Shown here piece after piece: positions 703 to 16,153 of a DNA stretch of 18,376 nt. Under the pieces are notes generated by a model, which did no database searches, had not been told where the DNA came from, and was given only the letters and a program-made list of their open reading frames with translations. The DNA comes from Chlamydiota bacterium (GTDB lineage Bacteria; Auribacterota; JACPWU01): positions 1 through 18,376 of the forward strand of contig JACPWU010000033.1 of NCBI GenBank assembly GCA_016196885.1, read 5' to 3'. Made by a program: the position numbers and the translations under genes. The first letter of the stretch is position 1; the number at the start of each line of letters is the position of its first letter.

Positions 703-1822
703 CGTGAAGGATTTGACCGTTTTGACAAAGCCAGGTGAACATGCCTTAGGGATTGGCCTTTTTCGATTTTCGGACCGCTATTCTGTTTTTGACTGGGGCG
801 AAATGCCGGATCAAATTCCTCATAAGGGGAAGGCGCTTTGTATCTTGGGCGCTTATTTTTTTGAAAAATTAGAGATGCTGGGGGTCAAGACCCATTATCT
901 GGGTCTCGTAGAAAATGGGGAGGTAAAAAAACTTTCTCAATTAAAGAGCCCTGCACAGACCATGAAAGTCCAACTGGTTCGAGTGGTTCGGCCTACTTTG
1001 AAGGACCGGATTTTTGATTATTCCGTTTTTCAAAAAAAGAGAGAGAATTTTCTGATCCCATTAGAAGTGATTTATCGCAACTCTCTCCCCTCGGGTGCCA
1101 GCGTTTTTAGGCGACTGAAAGAAGGAAGCCTCACCCTTCAAGAAATAGGTTTAAAAGAAATGCCTCGACCCGGTCAGAAATTTGAAAAGCCAGTCCTGGA
1201 TGTTTCGACCAAATTAGAAACCATTGACCGCTATCTTTCCTGGAAAGAAGCGGAGAAAATTTCTGGATTAAAGGCAGGAGAATTAGAAACGTTGCAGCGT
1301 CGTACGCTCGAAATTGCTGAACTCATCACGCAGGAGACGGCGCGTGTCGGCCTTTTCAACGAAGATGGAAAAGTCGAATTTGCCTTTGATGAAAAACGCA
1401 ATCTGATGCTTGTGGACGTTTTGGGAACGCCCGATGAGTGCCGATTTACAGTGAAAGACATCCCGGGCTTGACTGGGATGTCTGGATCAGTCCCTGCTCC
1501 CGTAGGGGCAGGTGGCCGAGCGGAGCGAGGGCCCTTGACGTTCGAAGGAATACCCGTGAGTAAAGAAGTGGCCCGGATTTATTATCGAGAGACGGCCTGG
1601 TTTAAGGATGTGGAGGGAGCTAAGAAAAAAGACAAAGTGGGTTGGAAAGAGAAAGTCAAAAGTAAGCCGAATCCACTGCCACCTGAGTTTTTAGAACTTG
1701 TTTCTTTCCTTTATCAAGCGTGTGCCAATGAAATCACTCAACGGGAATGGTTTCGTACACCTCCTCTCAAAGAGATCCTTCTAGGAATAAAGGGTTTCTT
1801 AAATCAAAAGGCATGTTGTTGA
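695..1822 (+). CDS. purC: SAICAR synthetase (phosphoribosylaminoimidazole-succinocarboxamide synthase), long form with an in-frame insertion
   Basis: N-terminal GSVKDL...FRFSDRYSVFDWG and GTPDECRF motifs are typical of PurC. I prefer ATG 695 (AAGGGGA RBS about 8 nt upstream, 8-nt overlap with the purE stop). The ORF track start 677 is the alternative. Confidence 0.88.
   Translation: MGSVKDLTVLTKPGEHALGIGLFRFSDRYSVFDWGEMPDQIPHKGKALCILGAYFFEKLEMLGVKTHYLGLVENGEVKKLSQLKSPAQTMKVQLVRVVRPTLKDRIFDYSVFQKKRENFLIPLEVIYRNSLPSGASVFRRLKEGSLTLQEIGLKEMPRPGQKFEKPVLDVSTKLETIDRYLSWKEAEKISGLKAGELETLQRRTLEIAELITQETARVGLFNEDGKVEFAFDEKRNLMLVDVLGTPDECRFTVKDIPGLTGMSGSVPAPVGAGGRAERGPLTFEGIPVSKEVARIYYRETAWFKDVEGAKKKDKVGWKEKVKSKPNPLPPEFLELVSFLYQACANEITQREWFRTPPLKEILLGIKGFLNQKACC
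1474..1539 (+). repeat. 66-nt GC-rich in-frame insertion in purC, flanked by direct repeats and carrying a conserved hairpin
   Basis: GGGCTTGAC (1465-1473) and GGGCCCTTGAC (1529-1539) bracket exactly 66 nt (22 codons, GMSGSVPAPVGAGGRAERGPLT). Hairpin 1488-1511 CAGTCCCT-GCTCCCGT-AGGGGCAG. GC content is far above the rest of the gene. Confidence 0.45.
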
Positions 1823-1849
1823 CATAACTTTAAAAAAATTAAATTTAAG

Positions 1850-2746
1850 ATGAACCATTCCCAAAATCCAACACAAGAAATTCCAGACTACAAACCCAAA
1901 AGCCTAGGATGGGCCATTGGGCTCTCCATGGTGCTTTCATTGATGAAAGGGGTTGTAGGTCTTTTTTCCTCTTCAGCGGCCTTGATTGCTTCTAGTGTAG
2001 ACTCTCTCATGGATGTGGGCATCTCTTCAGTGAATTATTTTTCCCTTCGAAAGGCTGCAAAACCTCCTGACAGTGACCATGCCTATGGGCATGGAAAAAT
2101 CGAGAGTTTAGCCTCTTACACGCAAGGCGTCCTTTTTATTCTCTTAGCCTTTTTTATCTTGATTGAATCTGTCCGGCGTGCCCAGGCCCATACACCTTTG
2201 ACGAATTCAGGGGGGGTCCTTTTCACAATTGTGTTGGCGTCGCTCGTTAATTTATTCATCACTTTTATGTTGTACAGGGCAGAAAAGAAAACGGGCTCCC
2301 TGATTCTAAAAGCCGAGGGCGTTCATTATTTCATGGACATTCTTTCCTACGCCCTCATTTTTGTTTCCATTCTTTTGGTTCGTTGGACCGGATGGCGAGG
2401 ATGGGACATTGTGGGGGGCATTCTCGTGGCACTTTATGTAGCAGGCCTTGCGGCTCAAATTTTATTTCAGGCGGGAAATGAGTTGGTAGACCGCTCGCTT
2501 CCTACTTCTACACTCGATGAATTAGATAAACTCATCAGAAGGCATGATCCGAGAATTTTAGACTATCACGAGTTGAGAACACGAAAAGTGGGAAGCAAAC
2601 ATTTTATTGATTTTCATTTGGTCTTAAAATCCAATCAGAGCTTTGAAAAGGTTCATGAAATTTCTGAATCTTTGATTGAGAAAATCAAAGAAAAATTTCA
2701 AGATGCAGATGTGACGGTGCATGAAGATCCCGAGGGTGGGATCTGA
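1850..2746 (+). CDS. cation diffusion facilitator (CDF) family metal efflux transporter
   Basis: 298 aa with multiple TM helices, the HAYGHGKIESL motif and a C-terminal cytoplasmic domain typical of CzcD/FieF-type CDF proteins. TGATG overlap with the next gene. Confidence 0.85.
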   Translation: MNHSQNPTQEIPDYKPKSLGWAIGLSMVLSLMKGVVGLFSSSAALIASSVDSLMDVGISSVNYFSLRKAAKPPDSDHAYGHGKIESLASYTQGVLFILLAFFILIESVRRAQAHTPLTNSGGVLFTIVLASLVNLFITFMLYRAEKKTGSLILKAEGVHYFMDILSYALIFVSILLVRWTGWRGWDIVGGILVALYVAGLAAQILFQAGNELVDRSLPTSTLDELDKLIRRHDPRILDYHELRTRKVGSKHFIDFHLVLKSNQSFEKVHEISESLIEKIKEKFQDADVTVHEDPEGGI

Positions 2747-3699
2747 TGCGTTCCGAAGTTCAGGCCTTGCCCAAAATTTTTCTAGAGCGTCTTCGAAAGA
2801 TTATTCCCTCTCATAAGTTTGATGCGGTTGCCAATACCTTTTCTTTGATGCGCCCTACCACTTTTCGCGTGAACACGCTTAAAGCTTCCGTCGAAAAGGT
2901 TCGCGAGAAATTGAGAAATGAAGGATTTCGTCTCAGTGAAGTCTCATGGTATCCCGAGGCTTTTATTTTGCAAGGAAAGGGGTTGAGAGAGCTTCAAGAG
3001 ACAGAAGTTTATAAATCGGGTGAAATTTATGTGCAAGGCCTTTCGAGCATGATTCCTCCTTTGGTTTTAAATCCTCAACCCGGAGAAAAAATTTTAGACT
3101 TAACAGCGGCCCCTGGAAGCAAAACCACTCAAATGGTTTGCTTAATGAAGGGACAGGGCCGCATCCTGGCCAATGACAACAACAAAATTCGCTTTTATCG
3201 CTTGAAGGCGAATCTTGAACTTCAAGGGGTGAATGAGATGGTCGAGCCCACTTTGCGTTATGGAGAATCCCTCGGGCGCGTTTACCCTACAAGCTTTGAC
3301 CGCGTGCTGGTAGACGCCCCGTGCAGTGCCGAAGGGCGCTTCTCTGCCAAGGAACCTTCATCTTACGCCTATTGGAAATTGAACAAAGTTCATGAAATGG
3401 AACGCAAGCAAAGAAAACTTCTTCTTTCTGGAATTTTAGCGCTGAAACCGGGTGGCGTTTTGGTTTATTCCACGTGCACCTTTGCGCCTGAAGAAAATGA
3501 GGGCGTCTTAAACGATGCCCTTGAAAAATTAGGGGAGCAAATAGAGCTAGAATCTATTTCTTTCTCCCTGCCCAATCTCATGAACGGTCTAAAAACGTGG
3601 GAGGAAAAAACATTTCATCCCTCTGTCACGCGCTCTCTACGCATTCTCCCCAACGCCCAAATGGACGGTTTTTTTGTCGCGAAGATGAGAAAAAGGTAG
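2746..3699 (+). CDS. NOL1/NOP2/Sun (RsmB/RsmF-like) RNA cytosine-C5 methyltransferase
   Basis: SAM-binding DLTAAPGSKTT, catalytic DAPCSAEG and YSTCT..EENE motifs. 317 aa, with no NusB-like N-domain. Confidence 0.85.
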   Translation: MRSEVQALPKIFLERLRKIIPSHKFDAVANTFSLMRPTTFRVNTLKASVEKVREKLRNEGFRLSEVSWYPEAFILQGKGLRELQETEVYKSGEIYVQGLSSMIPPLVLNPQPGEKILDLTAAPGSKTTQMVCLMKGQGRILANDNNKIRFYRLKANLELQGVNEMVEPTLRYGESLGRVYPTSFDRVLVDAPCSAEGRFSAKEPSSYAYWKLNKVHEMERKQRKLLLSGILALKPGGVLVYSTCTFAPEENEGVLNDALEKLGEQIELESISFSLPNLMNGLKTWEEKTFHPSVTRSLRILPNAQMDGFFVAKMRKR

Positions 3700-3816
3700 G
3701 TGTAAAATTTGTCCTAGGACCCTCCTTAGGGAATATTCTGCGATAAATAGTAAGACATATATATATTGACATACTTATTTTAAAATGTTCTACTTATCCT
3801 AGAATAGGAGAATAAT

Positions 3817-4053
3817 ATGATTACTGCCATCGTGACCTCCAAAGGTCAAATTGTGATTCCTTCTAAGATTCGGCAACACATGAGTATCAAGAGGGGAACA
3901 AAGCTCTATATCGAAGAGAAGGGAGATGAGCTTATTCTAAGGCCTGTGACGCCTCGATACTTTGAAAAGATTGCAGGGGTTTTGTCCACCAAGGGAAAAT
4001 TAACGAAACTCCTTTTGGAAGAACGAGCCAAAGATCGTAAAAAAGAGGCTTAA
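3817..4053 (+). CDS. vapB: AbrB/SpoVT/MazE-fold antitoxin (VapB-like)
   Basis: 78 aa; N-terminal SKGQIVIPSKIR swapped-hairpin motif. AGGAG RBS. TAATG overlap with the downstream PIN gene. Inverted repeat TCCTA-gaa-TAGGA at 3797-3809 overlaps the RBS region and is a possible operator. Confidence 0.8.
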   Translation: MITAIVTSKGQIVIPSKIRQHMSIKRGTKLYIEEKGDELILRPVTPRYFEKIAGVLSTKGKLTKLLLEERAKDRKKEA

Positions 4054-4451: not shown

Positions 4452-4475
4452 CATTTCTTTGGATGGTGAATATTG

Positions 4476-5101
4476 ATGCAAATTGTTAATCTTTACATGG
4501 ATGGTCCAAATTTACTTGGCGCTGTAAGTGATCTGCGGAAAAAACGTGTTTGGATAGATCCTTTTCGTTTATCATCTCATTTGGTTGACAAACAGATTCA
4601 GGAAGTAAAAACGATTTTTTACGCTGAAACACCCTATCCTGAAAATCTCCATAGCCCTGAATCATTTCGCAAACAACAGAGTTTCTTTGGCAGGATTTAT
4701 TCTTATATTCAGAGTCAAAAGGTGATTCACATTAAAGGTAATTATAGAATCGATACAAATACAGTTCCCCTTTTCATTGTAAATCAGCTAAGGACTGAAT
4801 CCAAAATTTAGTTAAAAGCATCAGTTGGAAAAAGCCAATAGAAAAAGGTGGAGATGTGGGTCTTGCGGTACGGCTTGTCCGAGATGCCTTTCGAGATGAA
4901 TTTGATCATGCAATTTTGGTCACTGCAGATCAAGATTTTGCTCCCGCAGTGAATATTGTTGTTATGGAGGCAAAGAAGAGAGTCAGTATTGCTTATGTGA
5001 ATAATAGCTATCGAAACGCTCTTGCATTAAGAAGCAAATGTAGAGGCGCAGAATTTATCCAAATAACCAGAAAAATGACAGATGCTTGTGAAATAAGTTA
5101 G
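4476..5101 (+). pseudogene. NYN/LabA-like (DUF88) domain gene, split by a frameshift
   Basis: The N-part (4476-4811) has IVNLYMDGPNLLGA. The C-part has EKGGDVGLAVRLV...HAILVTADQDFAP, the canonical NYN motifs. The second frame is open from 4799 and the first ends at TAG 4809-4811, so the shift lies within 4799-4811 (ATCCAAAATTTAG). Confidence 0.7.
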
Positions 5102-5309: not shown

Positions 5310-5915
5310 ATGAGTGATCATTTCTATTGTTATCATCCTCCTTTCCTCTATCTTGCCTCTGGCTCCCCTCGTCGCAGAGAAATTTTAGAAAAGATGAAAA
5401 TTCCTTTTCAGGTTGTGTCTTCTTCCTATTATGAGAGAAATTTCAAGGGAGTTGAGCCTGAAGAGTGGGTTTTGAGACATGCCTTGGGAAAGGTGAGAAA
5501 GGCCAAGGTTCCGAAATCAGCGCAATGGATTTTAGGCGCAGACACGATGGTGTTTTGCAAGGGAGAGGCGTTGGGCAAGCCGAGGTATTTAAAAGAGGCT
5601 TTGAAAATGATGAAGGTTTTGTCCGGGCAGAGACATGCAGTATGGACGGGGGTTGTTTTGTGGGATCGGATCAATGATCAGCTTCTGACCGGATGTGCTC
5701 AGACCCATGTTTGGATAAAACATTTAACGGAAACGGAGATTCTTCATTATTTTCAAAAGGTGAATCCCCTCGATAAAGCTGGGGCGTACGCGATTCAAGA
5801 GGGGCCCAAGATTGTTGAGAGGATTAATGGATCTTATTCCAATGTTGTTGGACTCCCTAAGGAGTTGCTAAACATGATGTTGGGTAGCATTTCTCTATTA
5901 AAAAAGAAGAATTAG
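5310..5915 (+). CDS. maf: Maf-like nucleoside triphosphate pyrophosphatase (septum formation inhibitor family)
   Basis: LASGSPRRREIL N-terminal signature, GADTMV, KAGAYAIQ motifs; 201 aa. Confidence 0.9.
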   Translation: MSDHFYCYHPPFLYLASGSPRRREILEKMKIPFQVVSSSYYERNFKGVEPEEWVLRHALGKVRKAKVPKSAQWILGADTMVFCKGEALGKPRYLKEALKMMKVLSGQRHAVWTGVVLWDRINDQLLTGCAQTHVWIKHLTETEILHYFQKVNPLDKAGAYAIQEGPKIVERINGSYSNVVGLPKELLNMMLGSISLLKKKN

Positions 5916-5920
5916 GCAAC

Positions 5921-5955
5921 ATTGAGCAATAAAAATTGGCATGATATTGCTCAAT
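5921..5955 (+). terminator. stem-loop after maf (weak terminator candidate)
   Basis: ATTGAGCAAT (5921-5930) pairs with ATTGCTCAAT (5946-5955), a perfect 10-bp stem with a 15-nt loop. No clear U-tract follows. Confidence 0.3.
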
Positions 5956-6027
5956 TCTAAAGCATGCTTCAGGGGTGAATGGATTTTTCTATACGCTAAA
6001 CGCTACACACTGTACGCTGTTTTTGCC

Positions 6028-7140
6028 ATGATCAAAAAATACCGTTTCGTAGATTTTGCTGCTCGGGGTCAATCAGGATTCCGCAATCATGTCGTTTCGA
6101 TTGAGGAAGTGCCCTTACTCATAGAGCAGTATCAATCCACTGAGTGTTTCTCTACTTATTTTTTCTACACGGATGAAATTTTTGCCTACATGAATACGCA
6201 TATCGAAAAAGATCGTCCGTCAATTGCGGGGTTTCCCGGAAAATTATGGGCGCCTTTTTTACCCTTGGATATAGATGCGGTGGATCTTGAGAAGGCTTTG
6301 GATGGGGTACGTGTGATTGGGAAAACTTTGATTCAGGAATGGAAAATTCCAGAAGGAGCCTGTCATTTTTATTTCAGTGGTTCGAAGGGTTTTCATATTC
6401 TTTTAGATGTGCGATTGTTCGGGAAAGTCCTTCCCAATCAGCATTTGCATCAGATTTTTTCGACGCTGCGAGAAAATTTAATGTATGAACTTCCGCTTTT
6501 TGATCATGCCTTGGTGGACTTGACGATCAAAGATGCCGTGCGCCTTTTGAGGCTTTCGAACACGCTTCATGAAAAATCTAAGCTGTATAAAATTTCTCTG
6601 AGTGCCGAAGAGATTTTTTCCAATACGATTTCAGAAATTTTAAAGAAGGCGAAGAAACCGCGGCCTCTTCTTTACACAGATGAGACGGGTTTGGTTTCAA
6701 AAGTTTCGGTGACAGCCCACCCTCGGTTGTCTAAAATTTTTAAACATGTTCGTGCGCTCGTTCGTAAATACACGCTAAAGCCTTTTACGTATCGCCTGAG
6801 CGTTCAATCAGAAAATCCTTCAGAATTTTTGTGCCCAGCCTTTTTAAAAATGTATGAGAGCTCTGTCGAACCAGGTTTAAGAAATAATTCTGTGATTCGA
6901 TTGCTGTCGGAATTTCGCCTGCATGGATTGAGTCTGGAAAAGTCCAGAGAGTTGATTCTGGCATGGAATGAGTCCCTTATCGTTATGGTTATCATGATTC
7001 GATTCTTCAGGCGTTTTGCCCGTATCAGAATATCGAAGAGTGTGAAAAATGGCACCAGAACAGGAAATAAAAATGATTTGGGATGTGGCGATTATCGGGG
7101 CCGGAGCAGCCGGCCTGATGACGGCGATCACTTGTGGTGA
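6028..7140 (+). CDS. archaeo-eukaryotic primase (AEP) superfamily primase-polymerase with PriCT-like C-terminal domain; the 3' end is probably frameshifted
   Basis: Motif I LPLDIDA, motif II FSGSKGFHI, motif III region IKDAVRLLRLSNTLHEKSKLYKI. PriCT-like CPAF...GLRNNSVIRLLSEF..G.S.E....ILAWNE. After AWNES the ORF-track frame becomes low-complexity hydrophobic/basic junk overlapping the next gene by 92 nt. The -1 frame from 6972 reads VPYRYGYHDSILQAFCPYQNIEECEKWHQNRK and stops at TAA 7068-7070, just before the next gene's ATG at 7073. The start is uncertain (6028 preferred; 5941 lies inside the upstream hairpin). Confidence 0.7.
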   Translation: MIKKYRFVDFAARGQSGFRNHVVSIEEVPLLIEQYQSTECFSTYFFYTDEIFAYMNTHIEKDRPSIAGFPGKLWAPFLPLDIDAVDLEKALDGVRVIGKTLIQEWKIPEGACHFYFSGSKGFHILLDVRLFGKVLPNQHLHQIFSTLRENLMYELPLFDHALVDLTIKDAVRLLRLSNTLHEKSKLYKISLSAEEIFSNTISEILKKAKKPRPLLYTDETGLVSKVSVTAHPRLSKIFKHVRALVRKYTLKPFTYRLSVQSENPSEFLCPAFLKMYESSVEPGLRNNSVIRLLSEFRLHGLSLEKSRELILAWNESLIVMVIMIRFFRRFARIRISKSVKNGTRTGNKNDLGCGDYRGRSSRPDDGDHLW

Positions 7141-8425
7141 AGCTGGACTTAAAGTCCTTCTTTTAGATGGGAGAGAAAAAATTGGGGCTAAAATTTTAAT
7201 GTCGGGTGGGACGCGTTGCAACATAACGAATCGGGATGTCTCTGAAAGAGATTTTGGTTCAGAGCAAAACAGGGTCGTTCGAGACGTGTTGCGCAGTTTT
7301 ACCTCAGAGGCTTCCTTGAGATTTTTTGAGCAATGGGGCGTCCATGTTTTGATGGAAGAAGGCGGAAAATATTTTCCGGATACCCACTCTGCAAAAACAG
7401 TTCTAGACGGCCTGATTCAGGGATGTTCTAAAAAAGGCGTTCAGCTCAAAACAAATCAAAAAGTTAGCGAAATTCAATTTCGAGAAAATCACTTTAAGGC
7501 ATATGCGCTTGGCTCAAGTATTCTTGATTCGTCAAGCGTAGTCGCCCGATTTATCGGGCAATCCATGCATGGCCCCATAAATGGGGCGACTACAAATGTG
7601 CATATGCCTAATCTTTTTTTGATTTCAGGAAAAGGATTTTCTTATGAAGCCAAAACCGTGGTTCTGTGTACCGGGGGACTGTCCTATCCTACGACAGGCA
7701 GTGACGGCGTTGGATATGAAATTGCAAAATCTTTTGGCCATTCTCTTGTTTTGACCACTCCGGCTCTTACGCCACTTTTGACAAATGATTCAGCTTGGAA
7801 AGCCTTAATGGGTGTGTCCCTGCCCGTGAAACTCACTCTTTCTCTCCATGATCAGAAAAAAGCCTCTTTTGAAGGGTCCTTTCTTTTTACACATTTCGGT
7901 TTTAGCGGAACGCCGGTCCTGAACATCAGCCGTCATTGGGTTCGTGAGCCCGATAAAAATGCTCTAAAGATGATGGCCAATTTTCTCCCTTCTGAAAGTC
8001 AGGAAGGTTTCCGTCAAAGTTTTGTTTTGGCGGCTCAAAAATCTTCATCCAAAACCCTGAAAAATTTTCTTTCAGAAAAACTTCCCGAACGATTTGTCGA
8101 AACTTTTTTAAAGAAAAACAAGTTAGCTGAAAATTTAGTTTTGAATCAATTAAAACGCGAAGCACGGGAAAGTTTGATTCAATCTCTTTTTTATTATTCT
8201 TTGCCAGTGACAGGTGTTTATGGTTATCAAAAGGCAGAAGTGACAGCTGGAGGCGTGGATCTACTTGAAGTTGATCCAAAAACATTAGAATCCAAGCTTC
8301 AGCCTGGCCTCTTCTTTGCCGGAGAAATCTTAGACGTAGACGGCCGCATCGGCGGATTTAATTTCCAATGGGCCTGGTCCAGTGGGGTGGTGGCGGGAAG
8401 AGGTGTGGTGAAGAAAATGCTTTAG
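7073..8425 (+). CDS. BaiN/HI0933-family NAD(FAD)-utilizing flavoprotein, carrying an in-frame palindromic element
   Basis: DVAIIGAGAAGL dinucleotide fold, MSGGTRCNITN, VVLCTGGLSYPTTGSDGVGY, GFSG, GGVDL..., GEILDVDGRIGGFNFQWAWSSG, all typical of the HI0933 family. ATG 7073 has an AGGAAA RBS; the track start 7049 is the alternative. Confidence 0.85.
   Translation: MIWDVAIIGAGAAGLMTAITCGEAGLKVLLLDGREKIGAKILMSGGTRCNITNRDVSERDFGSEQNRVVRDVLRSFTSEASLRFFEQWGVHVLMEEGGKYFPDTHSAKTVLDGLIQGCSKKGVQLKTNQKVSEIQFRENHFKAYALGSSILDSSSVVARFIGQSMHGPINGATTNVHMPNLFLISGKGFSYEAKTVVLCTGGLSYPTTGSDGVGYEIAKSFGHSLVLTTPALTPLLTNDSAWKALMGVSLPVKLTLSLHDQKKASFEGSFLFTHFGFSGTPVLNISRHWVREPDKNALKMMANFLPSESQEGFRQSFVLAAQKSSSKTLKNFLSEKLPERFVETFLKKNKLAENLVLNQLKREARESLIQSLFYYSLPVTGVYGYQKAEVTAGGVDLLEVDPKTLESKLQPGLFFAGEILDVDGRIGGFNFQWAWSSGVVAGRGVVKKML
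7497..7609 (+). mobile_element. MITE/REP-like palindromic element, copy A, inserted in-frame in the flavoprotein gene
   Basis: Terminal inverted repeats AGGCATATGC (7497-7506) and GCATATGCCT (7600-7609). The internal core 7538-7593 is GTAGTCGCC...GGCGACTAC. It is identical to the core at 16084-16128 except for one substitution and an 11-nt insertion that creates the palindrome CCATGCATGG. Confidence 0.7.
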
Positions 8426-8429
8426 CTTA

Positions 8430-8942
8430 ATGTCCAAAATCATTTCTCGTCAATTAAAACTTAAATTAGGCAAACAGCGTTTAGACTTGCTGGTCGCTCA
8501 TGGCAAGGAATTGTGTCTGATTGAATTAAAAGTAACAAGATTTTCCAATGAGTATATCTCCCAGGTGAGTGATTACAGGGATGAGCTTACCAAACTTCAA
8601 ATGCAGGGCGAGCGAGTCGATGGCCGACTGCGAGTTTTTTTACTGGTAACTGGATTAAGTAATGAAGACAAAAAACTATGCAACTTACACAACATAGAAA
8701 TTATTGAATATAAACCTATAGATGTTTTGAAGCAATATTTTCAGGACTTGTCGACTGTTGCACCATTTTTGAAAATTAAACCAAATGATTATGGTGTTTT
8801 CAATATTGGTCTGATAAACAGGGTCTTGAATCAACTGAGTCTTGGGAACTCAAACGAAGAAACACTTTCATCAATGACAGACTTATCGAGCGTAAGATCC
8901 ATTTTATACCAGTACAGTCTTTGGAATTTATTCTATGGTTGA
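8430..8942 (+). CDS. PD-(D/E)xK nuclease-fold protein resembling the NucS/DUF91 catalytic domain, with an uncharacterised C-terminal region
   Basis: RLDLLVAHGKELCLIELKV (D...ExK), followed by QVSDY and LRVFLLVTG...NIEIIEY, matches the NucS C-domain strand order. Only about 18 aa precede the catalytic Asp, so it may be 5'-truncated. It starts 4 nt after the upstream stop. AT-rich. Confidence 0.5.
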   Translation: MSKIISRQLKLKLGKQRLDLLVAHGKELCLIELKVTRFSNEYISQVSDYRDELTKLQMQGERVDGRLRVFLLVTGLSNEDKKLCNLHNIEIIEYKPIDVLKQYFQDLSTVAPFLKIKPNDYGVFNIGLINRVLNQLSLGNSNEETLSSMTDLSSVRSILYQYSLWNLFYG

Positions 8943-9231
8943 AAGTGCCTTCATTTTGTCAAGAAACAGTTATCTCATCAGTTTTGAGGACTTGATAGAA
9001 ATGTTTAAAATAATCAGTGGCAAAAGGTCTGAATGGAAGGCTAAAAAATCTCAGAGCACTGCGACGTATACTTTTCTGAATTTTGCCATTGATTTAGGCT
9101 TACTCGGTAAAATTGGAAGACAAATAGTTATCACGCCCGCTGGCTTCAGATTTATATTAATGTTGCAGTTACACAAAAGCATTGAGATGATTGAGTCGCT
9201 TTCGCTTAGACAAATGGAGGATTCACGATGA
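8935..9231 (+). CDS. hypothetical protein, possible winged-helix region
   Basis: 98 aa. 8-nt overlap (ATGGTTGA) with the upstream ORF. TYTFLNFAIDLGLLGKIGRQIVITPAG resembles a wHTH recognition helix plus wing. This frame is open from 8896, so it could be the frameshifted continuation of 8430-8942. Confidence 0.4.
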   Translation: MVESAFILSRNSYLISFEDLIEMFKIISGKRSEWKAKKSQSTATYTFLNFAIDLGLLGKIGRQIVITPAGFRFILMLQLHKSIEMIESLSLRQMEDSR

Positions 9232-9494
9232 GACAGGCTTTTTTGAAAATGGAATGGAATATCTTAAATAATGAAATGTTCACCAATAAACCTAAAAGAG
9301 AACCCTTTTCAGAGAAAGTTATAAAAAGGCGAGAGCTGCTTTTATTAGCTCAGCACCTACTCTCAGATATTGAATATGGAAAATCCAGTAAATTTAGGAG
9401 ATTCAAAAGTGAGCTATACCAAAGAACAATGAAAATTTACTTTTCTTGGTATAAAAAGCACGACATCAATGGACATATCATTTGGGAAAAGTAA
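9228..9494 (+). CDS. hypothetical small basic helical protein
   Basis: 88 aa. ATGA overlap with the upstream ORF and a strong GGAGGA RBS 7 nt upstream. No recognisable motif. Confidence 0.45.
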   Translation: MRQAFLKMEWNILNNEMFTNKPKREPFSEKVIKRRELLLLAQHLLSDIEYGKSSKFRRFKSELYQRTMKIYFSWYKKHDINGHIIWEK

Positions 9495-9615
9495 AACGAT
9501 TTACAGCTTTAGGAAAAGGTTAGCCCCTCACCACTATCCTTTCAATTCTTTTTCGTCTGGTACCTCCAAGATCCATAATTGCTGTATGGAAGGTGTATAA
9601 AAATATTACATTACA

Positions 9616-9644
9616 TTGACAGATTTAAATACATTTGCTATGAA
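9616..9644 (+). promoter_or_regulatory. sigma70-like promoter reading through element B toward the XRE/Panacea gene
   Basis: TTGACA (9616-9621), 17 nt, TATGAA (9639-9644). The -10 hexamer is contributed by the left end of the repeat element. Confidence 0.3.
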
Positions 9645-9767
9645 AGTGAGGCTCATTTTGTAGTCGCCCCATTTATGGGGCTGCCCGATGAATCGGGCGA
9701 CTACAAAAAAAGCATGATTGGGAGAACTTTCATCGCACGCGATGATCTCGAAAGATCATTGAAATTG
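9635..9767 (-). mobile_element. 133-nt MITE/REP-like palindromic element, copy B
   Basis: Reverse complement of 16021-16153 with 128/133 identity and no indels. Core 9660-9704. Arms TGCTATGAAAGT / ACTTTCATCGCA pair. An extra hairpin ATGATC-TCGAAA-GATCAT lies at the right end. Confidence 0.85.
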
Positions 9768-9790
9768 ATATAAGTGAGATGTGAAGTGCC

Positions 9791-10579
9791 ATGGATAAAA
9801 TTTCTCTTAGACTGGGTCAAAAAATTAAAGAGCTTAGATCTCAATCAGGTTTGAGTCAGCAAGATCTTGCGGATGAGCTTGGAGTTCCTAGACCTTCCAT
9901 CTCTCGAATGGAGGCTGGGGAGAGAAAAATATCGGCGGAGGAATTGATAAAACTGGCTCATTTATTTAATGTTTCAGTTGAAAATCTGCTGAATTTGGAA
10001 AAATCTTCAGAGGTGGTTTTAGAGAGAGGAAAAAGGAAGGAGGGTGAGGGCATGAAAACTCAGATGAGAATCAGTGTGCCTCAAAAAAATGTTTCTAAGT
10101 TTAAAGAAGTGTTGCTGTACATTTTAAATAAAGTTGGCTCAAAACCAAATATAGGTGAAACGGTTATTTATAAGCTTCTTTATTTTATCGACTTTGATTT
10201 TTATGAGAAATATGAAGAACAACTGATTGGGGCAACCTATATTAAAAATCATCATGGGCCGACCCCCGTTGAGTTTATAAAAATTGTTGAAGAGATGATT
10301 CAATCAGGACAGGTAGAGAAGGTGAAGAGCGAGTTTTTTAAATATCCTCAGACTAAATATTTACCGCATAAGAAGGCGGATCTTACCAAACTGAAGGCTC
10401 ATGAGATTGAATCCATTGATGAGGTCCTCAACAAGCTTTCAGATATGACTGCAACGCAAATCAGTGATTATTCCCATGGAGATATTCCGTGGATTACGGC
10501 CGAAGATCAAGCAGTGATTAACTACGAGTCTGTTTTTTACCGCGCGCCCCAATATTCTGTTCGAGATTACGATTTATGA
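9791..10579 (+). CDS. XRE-family HTH fused to a Panacea (DUF4065, SocA/PanA-like) antitoxin-type domain
   Basis: N-terminus [43 protein letters not shown] is a Cro/C1-type HTH. The C-terminal [32 protein letters not shown]... matches the DUF4065/Panacea pattern. Confidence 0.8.
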
Positions 10580-10692
10580 GATCCGTCGCAATAAGGCTGA
10601 TTTTTAGATTTTCCGCAGCGGCACCCATGATACGTTCCAGGTTCTAGATTTAAAACAGCGGGTCTTTTCGCTGCAATCGTAGGTTCACTCAT
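10567..10692 (-). CDS. small CDGSH-type [2Fe-2S] domain protein (41 aa, probably 3'-truncated); not in the ORF track
   Basis: Hand translation of the minus strand: [41 protein letters not shown]. It matches C-X-C-X2-S-X3-P-X-C-D-G-S-H exactly. AAGGAGG RBS 5 nt upstream of the ATG (10692-10690). The stop at 10569-10567 comes two residues after the His ligand. Convergent 13-nt overlap with 9791-10579. Confidence 0.65.
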
Positions 10693-10901
10693 TTTTCCTC
10701 CTTGTCTTGATGGGAGTGCATCGGAAATCCGGTACTGGCCTTAATGATGTCTTCATTGTGAACGAGCAAGAGGCCATGATGGGTGTTTTGAGGATCATGG
10801 TGCTCACCAAAACTGAAACTGTGCCAGGAATCAAGCCAATGCGTTTGAGTATAAAAACGGTCTTTCGCGCAATGAAGCGTTAAGTTGCTTAACGTTTTCA
10901 T
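10689..10901 (-). pseudogene. pirin N-terminal fragment (truncated cupin)
   Basis: WLDSWHSFSFGEHHDP...[22 protein letters not shown] is the pirin N-domain up to the first two metal-binding His. The ORF then reads KEEK-stop directly into the RBS of the CDGSH gene. The remaining roughly 160-230 aa of a normal pirin are missing. Confidence 0.7.
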
Positions 10902-15951: not shown

Positions 15952-16021
15952 GTCATTCTCGAAATGGATAGATTCCCAATGACCTCACAGGGACTTCTGC
16001 GCTGAAACACTCGGGGATGAC
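15952..16021. repeat. REP-like palindromic element related to 14066-14141
   Basis: GTCATTCTCGA (15952-15962) and CTCGGGGATGAC (16010-16021) form imperfect inverted termini resembling GTCATTCTGAG / CTCAGGATGAC. The element abuts element C. Confidence 0.4.
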
Positions 16022-16153
16022 AATTTCAATGATCCTTCGAGATCGTCGTGTGCGATGAAAGTTCTCCCTATCATGCTTTTTTTGTAGTCGCCCGATTCAT
16101 CGGGCAGCCCCATAAATGGGGCGACTACAGAATGAGCCTCACTTTCATAGCAA
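16021..16153 (+). mobile_element. 133-nt MITE/REP-like palindromic element, copy C
   Basis: Inverted copy of 9635-9767 (5 substitutions). Core 16084-16128 GTAGTCGCCCGATTCATCGGGCAGCCCCATAAATGGGGCGACTAC. On the + strand, a bulged stem GCGATGA/TCATGC (16052-16076) followed by T7 (16077-16083) looks like an intrinsic terminator. Confidence 0.85.

Follow-up and report, generated by a model that had tools for sequence, protein, structure and literature searches.

Nucleases of the NucS family have a Q..Y pair of residues. Fusions of a PD-(D/E)XK domain with a winged helix, and of a winged helix with an HNH domain, are known as modification-dependent enzymes of the DpnI-like and type IV/IIM kinds (PMC11037411), and NucS-like nuclease domains fused to modification sensors have been described as END nucleases (PMC12191111). 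Here, we analyzed positions 8430-9494 of a Chlamydiota contig (JACPWU010000033.1, assembly GCA_016196885.1), whose 18,376 nucleotides (nt) are hereafter called the window. This stretch holds three overlapping open reading frames (ORF1 to ORF3), and an initial annotation made from the letters alone had described them as a translationally coupled three-gene cassette led by a NucS-like nuclease, a candidate conflict or defense module. Our analysis indicates that the stretch is very probably the decaying remnant of a larger cassette with the gene order M-R-S-H (methyltransferase, NucS-like nuclease, small protein, and HNH protein), i.e., a case of gene decay and not a three-gene defense system.

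The nuclease gene R and its two pieces

The three ORFs and their overlaps were found where the initial annotation had placed them (Table 1), and the junction letters agreed when read straight off the sequence, with ATGGTTGA at 8935-8942 between ORF1 and ORF2 and ATGA at 9228-9231 between ORF2 and ORF3. When homologs were searched with a word index, few were found for ORF1, and all of them began about 35 residues earlier (M.LKQHNNISESQVEDALV...) and extended beyond the end of ORF1 into a winged helix. For ORF2, 25 homologs with 66-83% identity were found, most with an N-terminal extension that overlapped the end of the ORF1 homologs. A scan with the ORF2 alignment, keeping one genome per species, gave 31 loci in Chloroflexota, Zixibacteria, phyla of the candidate phyla radiation (CPR), Bacteroidota, Planctomycetota, Omnitrophota, Acidobacteriota, Methanosarcinales, Woesearchaeota, and Micrarchaeota. 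In about 27 of these 31 genome loci, tblastn with a composite R reference detected an uninterrupted ORF of about 350 amino acids (aa; query positions 1-350). The same reference matched the window in two pieces, with query positions 36-186 at 8436-8888 in one frame (E = 4e-43) and 241-352 at 8878-9213 in the other (72% identity, E = 2e-46), while residues 1-35 of intact R had no tblastn match in the window. The sequence that is divided between ORF1 and ORF2 is one uninterrupted gene R of about 352 aa in about 22 bacterial and archaeal metagenome-assembled genomes (MAGs), and it encodes an N-terminal NucS-like PD-(D/E)xK nuclease followed by a first winged helix (wH1), a linker, and a second winged helix.

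Next, 22 intact R proteins and the window copy were aligned residue by residue. A further alignment, A3, was dropped in favor of A4 because mixed N- and C-terminal fragments were misaligned in it. The window copy kept to the family sequence between K36 and '...TDLSS' (near residue 188); the next 58 or so internal codons (R residues ~189-246, covering wH1 and the linker) were gone, the frame was shifted, and homology restarted at 'DPFYTSTVFGIYSMVESAF...' in the other frame. The internal junction lies at ~8889-8895, and a TAA at 8893-8895 in the ORF2 frame stands directly 5' of the resumed homology. The final 16 residues of ORF1 are an out-of-frame reading of this resumed stretch of R, in its +2 frame, indicating that the end of ORF1 is not a genuine C-terminus. 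On the other side of the junction, homology to R begins 13 codons before the annotated ATG of ORF2 (8935); this ATG stands in place of a family Ile/Val, it falls midway in the first helix of the C-terminal domain in a structure model, and it has no ribosome-binding site. At the left edge, the flavoprotein gene stops at 8423-8425, 4 nt ahead of ORF1, with no visible Shine-Dalgarno sequence upstream of ORF1 and no remnant of M in the window. The homologies, the breakpoints, and the missing parts of the window copy can be read directly from the sequence, and by this comparison ORF1 and ORF2 are evidently fragments of a single decayed gene R. The ORFs would overlap because a deletion of about 170 nt shifted the frame, making the apparent translational coupling of ORF1 and ORF2 a by-product. 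The initial annotation had itself named fragments of one decayed gene as the finding that would speak against three coupled genes, and this is what the single ORF spanning ORF1 and ORF2 in about 22 genomes points to. Two other readings of this position, programmed frameshifting and two genuinely separate genes, were considered and rejected: about 58 codons are missing and not one base, and the homologs that are broken in this part of R (loci L002-L004 and L040, proteins P0005/P0006) have other breakpoints, with about 22 continuous.

Frameshifts in MAGs are commonly errors, and the breaks could therefore be an artefact of sequencing or assembly in an organism that really has an intact R gene. 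However, 35 and about 58 codons have been deleted, and these are not single-base slips. Moreover, three independent single-run Logan assemblies (SRR12113387, SRR12113416, and SRR12113417) were 100% identical to the window across the whole region, and an identical ORF1 was present in the GenBank MAG GCA_016178005.1 (contig JACOUD010000007.1). Since four independent assemblies have the same broken state, the breaks are not assembly errors, and the chance of an artefact is negligible.

The catalytic motif that had been picked out by eye in ORF1 proved to be a conserved one. The LDLL...IELK segment aligned with D52, E65, and K67, and the Q..Y pair with Q78 and Y82; all five residues were invariant in 22 of 22 intact homologs, as were E11 and E15. 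The profile matches of ORF1 were all below threshold (YhcG_C, E = 0.006; PADLOC PDC-S02; a RecB-like nuclease motif), with weak YhcG_C, PDC-S02, and Hjc matches lying over the D/ExK motif, and neither ORF2 nor ORF3 matched any family in the profile searches. An AlphaFold2 (AF2) model of a 256-aa family member (mean predicted local distance difference test score of 65, and 70-90 in the core) had an alpha-beta-beta-beta-alpha-beta core for the nuclease and a winged helix after it, with the D/ExK residues on adjacent beta-strands (50-57 and 60-70). This core is complete in the intact homolog P0003 and incomplete in the window ORF1, where the first helix (residues 1-35, with the invariant E11 and E15) is gone.

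When this model was compared with solved structures using Foldseek, the top matches were Pyrococcus abyssi NucS (2vld_A/B) and EndoMS (5gke_A), with E-values of 3-5e-4, a probability of 1.0, and about 120-127 aligned columns, followed by Bax1 and the R2 restriction-like endonuclease. The NucS-like call made for ORF1 is therefore sustained at the level of the fold, the best match in the PDB being the catalytic domain of NucS/EndoMS. At the sequence level, the NCBIfam NucS model, with its cut-off of 216, scored ORF1 at 12.6 bits (E = 0.05) and the intact R of locus L005 at 15.8 bits (E = 0.0056); in Pfam, no match was obtained to NucS (PF01939/NF003270 family), only the sub-threshold YhcG_C. The N-terminal DNA-binding domain of NucS is absent, as had been noted, since the nuclease of intact R starts at about residue 10 and the winged helices come after it. 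R is NucS-like in fold but, given the wide miss of the sequence models and the missing N-terminal domain, not a member of the NucS family. In the model of the C-terminal domain, corresponding to the ORF2 region, a long helix accompanies a generic winged helix, with weak matches to MotA, MarR, MukF, and Sso10a, which agrees with the winged-helix-like segment reported for ORF2. The R profile gave only generic ArsR/Sso10a winged-helix matches among solved structures and nothing to DpnI, and a sequence link of R to either NucS or DpnI was rejected on the PDB sequence-profile searches.

ORF3 and the M-R-S-H cassette

ORF3 had been regarded as a small basic protein without a recognizable motif, and a word-indexed search returned no homolog for it. 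Clustering of the neighbors of R in the 31 loci revealed a 70-100-aa ORF directly after R in many of them, here named S, with the signature EW..L..E.F.N.P...RRELLL.AQ..L. A full phmmer scan of 1.84 billion representatives then gave 26 relatives of ORF3, nearly all matching only within aa 1-79. On these two results, ORF3 as an orphan gene was rejected. The end of ORF3, HDINGHIIWEK, and the underlying 42 nt matched the extreme 3' end of H, using the H genes of loci L027, L017, and L010 for comparison, and tblastn of ORF3 residues 75-88 against the H tails agreed. All the conserved residues of the S family are retained. These data indicate that ORF3 is S joined in frame to the tail of H after a near-total loss of H, and the view of it as a novel protein gives way to that of a conserved S gene with the 3' end of an HNH gene. 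The proteins P0056, P0039, and P0042 of the S family also end in H-tail sequence, e.g., '...KHNINGHIVWKK', and the recurrence of such fusions may be due to local similarity of the C-termini of S and H.

The GGAGG ribosome-binding site of S sits inside the end of R, and both this site and the ATGA overlap are common to the closest intact relatives. Of the coupling originally proposed, the ATGA between ORF2 and ORF3 therefore stands, as a feature inherited from the R-S junction, while the overlap of ORF1 with ORF2 does not. With its ribosome-binding site kept, S may still be translated.

The genes M, S, and H recur beside R across the loci. M encodes a beta-class N6/N4 DNA methyltransferase (motifs SPPYN...DPFxGSGTT; PF01555, E = 7e-41; PADLOC MTase_II, E = 1e-86) that abuts or overlaps the start of R in at least 12 loci, S is a helical protein of about 75 aa with its start coupled to R, and H, normally found after S, is a protein of about 183 aa that combines an AbiEi_4-like winged helix with an HNH domain (PF01844, E = 1e-7). 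The full unit measures about 2.9 kb and has no integrase. The window copy, collinear with R and followed immediately by S with a coupled start, is a shortened member of this family. The composition had been judged by eye to be clearly AT-rich, and this was confirmed: the GC content was 0.33-0.38 over 8400-9600 versus ~0.42-0.48 in the flanking flavoprotein and purine genes, and 0.36 in the R remnant (8436-9213) versus 0.44 in the remaining window. R was also more AT-rich than its flanks in 27 of 27 loci. In loci without M, R is preceded by a housekeeping gene, for example one for SecA, AcrB, a peptidase S46, LexA, a hydrogenase subunit, or MCM. This placement beside unrelated housekeeping genes in very different hosts indicates that the cassette was inserted at unrelated chromosomal sites, which by analogy is the behavior expected of mobile genes of the restriction-modification type. 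The ancestor of the window copy was thus very probably an AT-rich, horizontally acquired, restriction-modification-like M-R-S-H unit; the foreign origin proposed for this DNA is upheld, and so is a conflict-type ancestry, in the form of a cassette of a methyltransferase and nucleases.

The R proteins are annotated at NCBI as 'hypothetical protein', and R matched no PADLOC restriction endonuclease model (REase_II, E ≤ 0.1), NCBIfam equivalog, or PHROG, while H matched PADLOC REase_II PDLC03478 (E = 1.5e-5) in the HNH region only. Next, the intactness of M and H was scored by their motifs in the cassette loci (L005-L034 and L040). M was intact in five loci and truncated in seven others, with several different end-points that always fell just short of the start of R, which stays untouched. 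R itself was intact in nearly all the scored loci, with invariant catalytic residues. Where M was intact and H could be assessed, H was intact in three of three loci, versus 2 of 19 where M was truncated or absent, a comparison of small numbers between loci that are not phylogenetically independent. This pattern suggests that the partner dependent on the methylase is H rather than R, and that R-S is kept for reasons of its own. The R-S pair was found with 60-75% identity over CPR bacteria, Bacteroidota, Planctomycetota, Chloroflexota, Methanosarcinales, and DPANN archaea. It is conceivable, and we put it forward tentatively from these gene patterns, that R-S is an undescribed inter-domain mobile nuclease module and that R is not a classical methylase-dependent restriction enzyme; in that case, M and H would form a restriction-modification couple of their own that encloses R-S. 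R could be a modification-dependent, nicking, or toxin-like nuclease with its own small partner.

In the loci without S, other small conserved ORFs follow R. One is an 87-aa family (L015 8433-8696, L018 8359-8622, and L023 821-1084), and another is a zinc-ribbon-like family of 74-78 aa (CxxC...CxxC; L030 6749-6985 and L034 1308-1532) with a weak match to phrog_9844, suggesting that the small partners of R are interchangeable. A phage origin found no support, as tblastn with R gave nothing in 50,697 phage records and neither R nor S matched a PHROG. Among plasmids, there was one distant match, on Halobaculum marinum plasmid NZ_CP119991.1 (L041, 181245-182330), where the R homolog is full length with 22% identity (E = 1e-20). 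Its neighbors are queD/queE/folE/queC, a large tgt-like gene, and PD-(D/E)xK and helicase genes; this resembles a 7-deazaguanine (Dpd-like) DNA-modification neighborhood and hints at DNA-modification contexts, nothing more.

Table 1. Features of the remnant and its right border, in window coordinates.
Feature	Position	Strand	Length, content, and basis
ORF1	8430-8942	+	170 aa
ORF2	8935-9231	+	98 aa
ORF3	9228-9494	+	88 aa
ORF1 start (ATG TCC)	8430-8435	+	Without equivalent in intact family members; located at the left deletion junction
R fragment A	8436-8891	+	R residues ~36-188: beta1-3 with D/ExK, Q..Y helix, rest of the nuclease domain, first turn of wH1; tblastn, alignment, invariant columns, model and fold search
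Out-of-frame ORF1 tail (VRSILYQYSLWNLFYG*)	8892-8942	+	+2 reading of the DPFY...VESAF region of R
R fragment B	8896-9231	+	R residues ~247-352: second winged helix, C-terminal helix, native stop
S portion of ORF3	9228-9455	+	aa 1-76; neighbor clustering, tblastn, phmmer, alignment A6, junction comparison
H tail in ORF3	9456-9494	+	Last ~12 codons and stop of H (HDINGHIIWEK*); protein and DNA comparison
133-nt palindromic repeat	9635-9767	.	Right bound of the remnant, outside the cassette; between ORF3 and the XRE-Panacea gene

Probable decay of the window copy and its surroundings

Three deletions would account for the present state of the stretch. The first, at the border with the flavoprotein gene, would have removed M together with codons 1-35 of R. 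The second, inside R (codons ~189-246), would have split R into ORF1 and ORF2, and the third would have taken nearly all of H, leaving S fused to its last codons. The closest relative (locus L040, 75-79% identical) has likewise decayed: its M is truncated and carries stops, its R is scattered across three frames, and its S has been joined to what is left of H. It is unlikely that the R fragments of the window still give an active nuclease, because ORF1 lacks helix alpha1 (E11, E15) and a Shine-Dalgarno sequence and ends in a nonsense tail, and ORF2 starts mid-helix without a ribosome-binding site.

Of 85 positions conserved at ≥90%, 82 are unchanged in the window, which is within the range of the intact members, and we infer that the decay is recent or that the fragments are still under some constraint. 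Several points weigh against simple decay: the high residue conservation could reflect residual selection instead of recent decay; ORF3 keeps a strong ribosome-binding site; a similar fusion of S to an H tail is seen in no fewer than one unrelated member of the family (P0056) and may be a functional form; and no empty site was found in a close relative with which the insertion could be dated or delimited. One alternative is a partial domestication, in which the nuclease is dead and one or more fragments still work, the candidates being S (ORF3) as an antitoxin-like, immunity, or regulatory protein and the winged helix of ORF2 as a DNA-binding protein. The ancestral GGAGG and all the S-family residues kept in ORF3, the conserved positions retained in the fragments, the recurrence of S fusions to H tails, and an ORF2 start codon born from an Ile/Val-to-Met change would all suit it. 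However, ORF2 starts partway through helix 1 of its winged-helix domain and lacks a ribosome-binding site, S has no intact partner in the window, and the neighboring NYN gene, AEP-like ORF (for archaeo-eukaryotic primase), and pirin gene are fragmented as well, suggesting decay of the region in general. We consider a partial domestication unlikely, and decay of an M-R-S-H cassette is preferred.

The proposal of a functional three-gene defense or toxin-antitoxin module, with a stand-alone NucS-like nuclease possibly neutralized by the product of the downstream XRE-Panacea gene, was based on the overlapping stop and start codons, the NucS-like fold, and the conflict-type neighbors vapBC, NYN, and Panacea. 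Part of this neighborhood was substantiated, namely MazE/PIN and the XRE-Panacea gene (9791-10579; Panacea, E = 3e-18; HTH_3, E = 1e-17), whereas only the C-terminal half of an NYN gene was recognized and the AEP primase gave weak matches only. The link to Panacea found no support: when the window XRE-Panacea protein was searched by tblastn in 35 related R loci (the 31 genome loci, L001-L004, and L040), no homolog was detected in any of them, and the only match was in the window's own contig. A structured 133-nt repeat also parts ORF3 from this gene. Furthermore, the arrangement of three ORFs is found in this population only, and ORF1 and ORF2 line up, in order, with one gene that other genomes carry intact, which largely refutes the proposal. 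Nothing points to a joint action of the three ORFs as a system, and such a module is very improbable.

No toxin partner of the XRE-Panacea gene is visible in the window, and the next ORF (10689-10901, minus strand) is a 70-aa pirin fragment, seemingly another gene remnant. The 133-nt repeat has an inverted second copy 6 kb off (16021-16153, 96% identical), and its predicted RNA fold has an energy of -58.6 kcal/mol (z = -8); Rfam gave nothing credible for the 9495-9790 spacer. A 25-nt piece of the repeat is present at 7572-7596, inside an in-frame insertion of about 41 aa (aa ~149-189) in the HI0933-like flavoprotein that is absent from its homologs. The repeat looks like an element of the REP (repetitive extragenic palindromic) or MITE (miniature inverted-repeat transposable element) type that has also landed inside a coding gene.

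The NYN-domain gene is seemingly split over two frames (4473-4811 and 4856-5101), with only the second ORF giving a match (profile positions 79-139 of 145, E = 8e-8; also PADLOC HEC-09). The AEP-like ORF (5941-7140; PriS, E = 2e-4; PriCT_1, E = 0.17) extends into the beginning of the flavoprotein gene. Between the window and GCA_016178005.1 there are 47-nt and 67-nt indels at ~6815-6973, which mark this locus as either polymorphic in the population or decaying in it. In the distant relatives L044, L046, L049, and L094, maf directly follows the flavoprotein gene; in the window (5310-8425), maf lies upstream of it with the AEP-like ORF between, and the flavoprotein-maf region is rearranged. A metagenome scan with the flavoprotein gave no relative above 49% identity.

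Collectively, these results remove a false lead, as nuclease ORFs that look coupled in a 'defense-like' setting are deletion fragments of one cassette, and toxicity or phage assays on the cloned window ORFs would probably yield nothing. Overlapping stop and start codons with a good ribosome-binding site are no evidence of an operon if one gene in other genomes spans the ORFs collinearly. In the window, the feature is a case of ordinary decay, and the intact R-S family is unnamed and uncharacterized. As a by-product, the analysis brought to light an unnamed, widely transferred gene set, M-R-S-H, with a NucS-like R that is conserved independently of the methyltransferase; the intact copies of a Bacteroidetes locus (L016, with the cassette at 1230-3869) and a Dehalococcoidia locus (L005) are suited to experiments.

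Comparison with known systems

NucS/EndoMS (DUF91) is the best structural match of the R nuclease domain, and both have the D...ExK...Q..Y arrangement. However, sequence models of that family score R below threshold, and the N-terminal DNA-binding and dimerization domain of NucS is lacking. In R, the nuclease is N-terminal and two winged helices follow, and the gene resides in a mobile cassette and not in a repair locus.

The architectures of R (nuclease plus winged helices) and of H (winged helix plus HNH) are shared with the modification-dependent enzymes of PMC11037411 and the nuclease-sensor fusions of PMC12191111, the likeness being one of architecture only; no sequence similarity of R to DpnI or another solved structure was found. 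By analogy, the persistence of R without a cognate methyltransferase would fit a modification-dependent enzyme, whereas the frequent presence of methyltransferase genes as its immediate neighbors would not.

With regard to type II restriction-modification, the differences are that R matches no REBASE-derived restriction endonuclease model, that M-R-S-H contains two nucleases and a small protein, that R remains whole in loci with a truncated or missing M, contrary to the order in which decay usually proceeds, with H co-varying with M, and that the window copy has no methyltransferase at all. The likenesses are in organization: in the relatives, the gene after the beta-class methyltransferase has the same orientation and adjoins or overlaps it, with nucleases following, and M-R-S-H is small, AT-rich, free of an integrase, placed between housekeeping genes in many bacterial and archaeal phyla, and often partly deleted, as are orphan or pseudo restriction-modification genes. 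Set beside these systems, the window stretch is a broken member of the restriction-modification-like mobile cassettes and their remnants.

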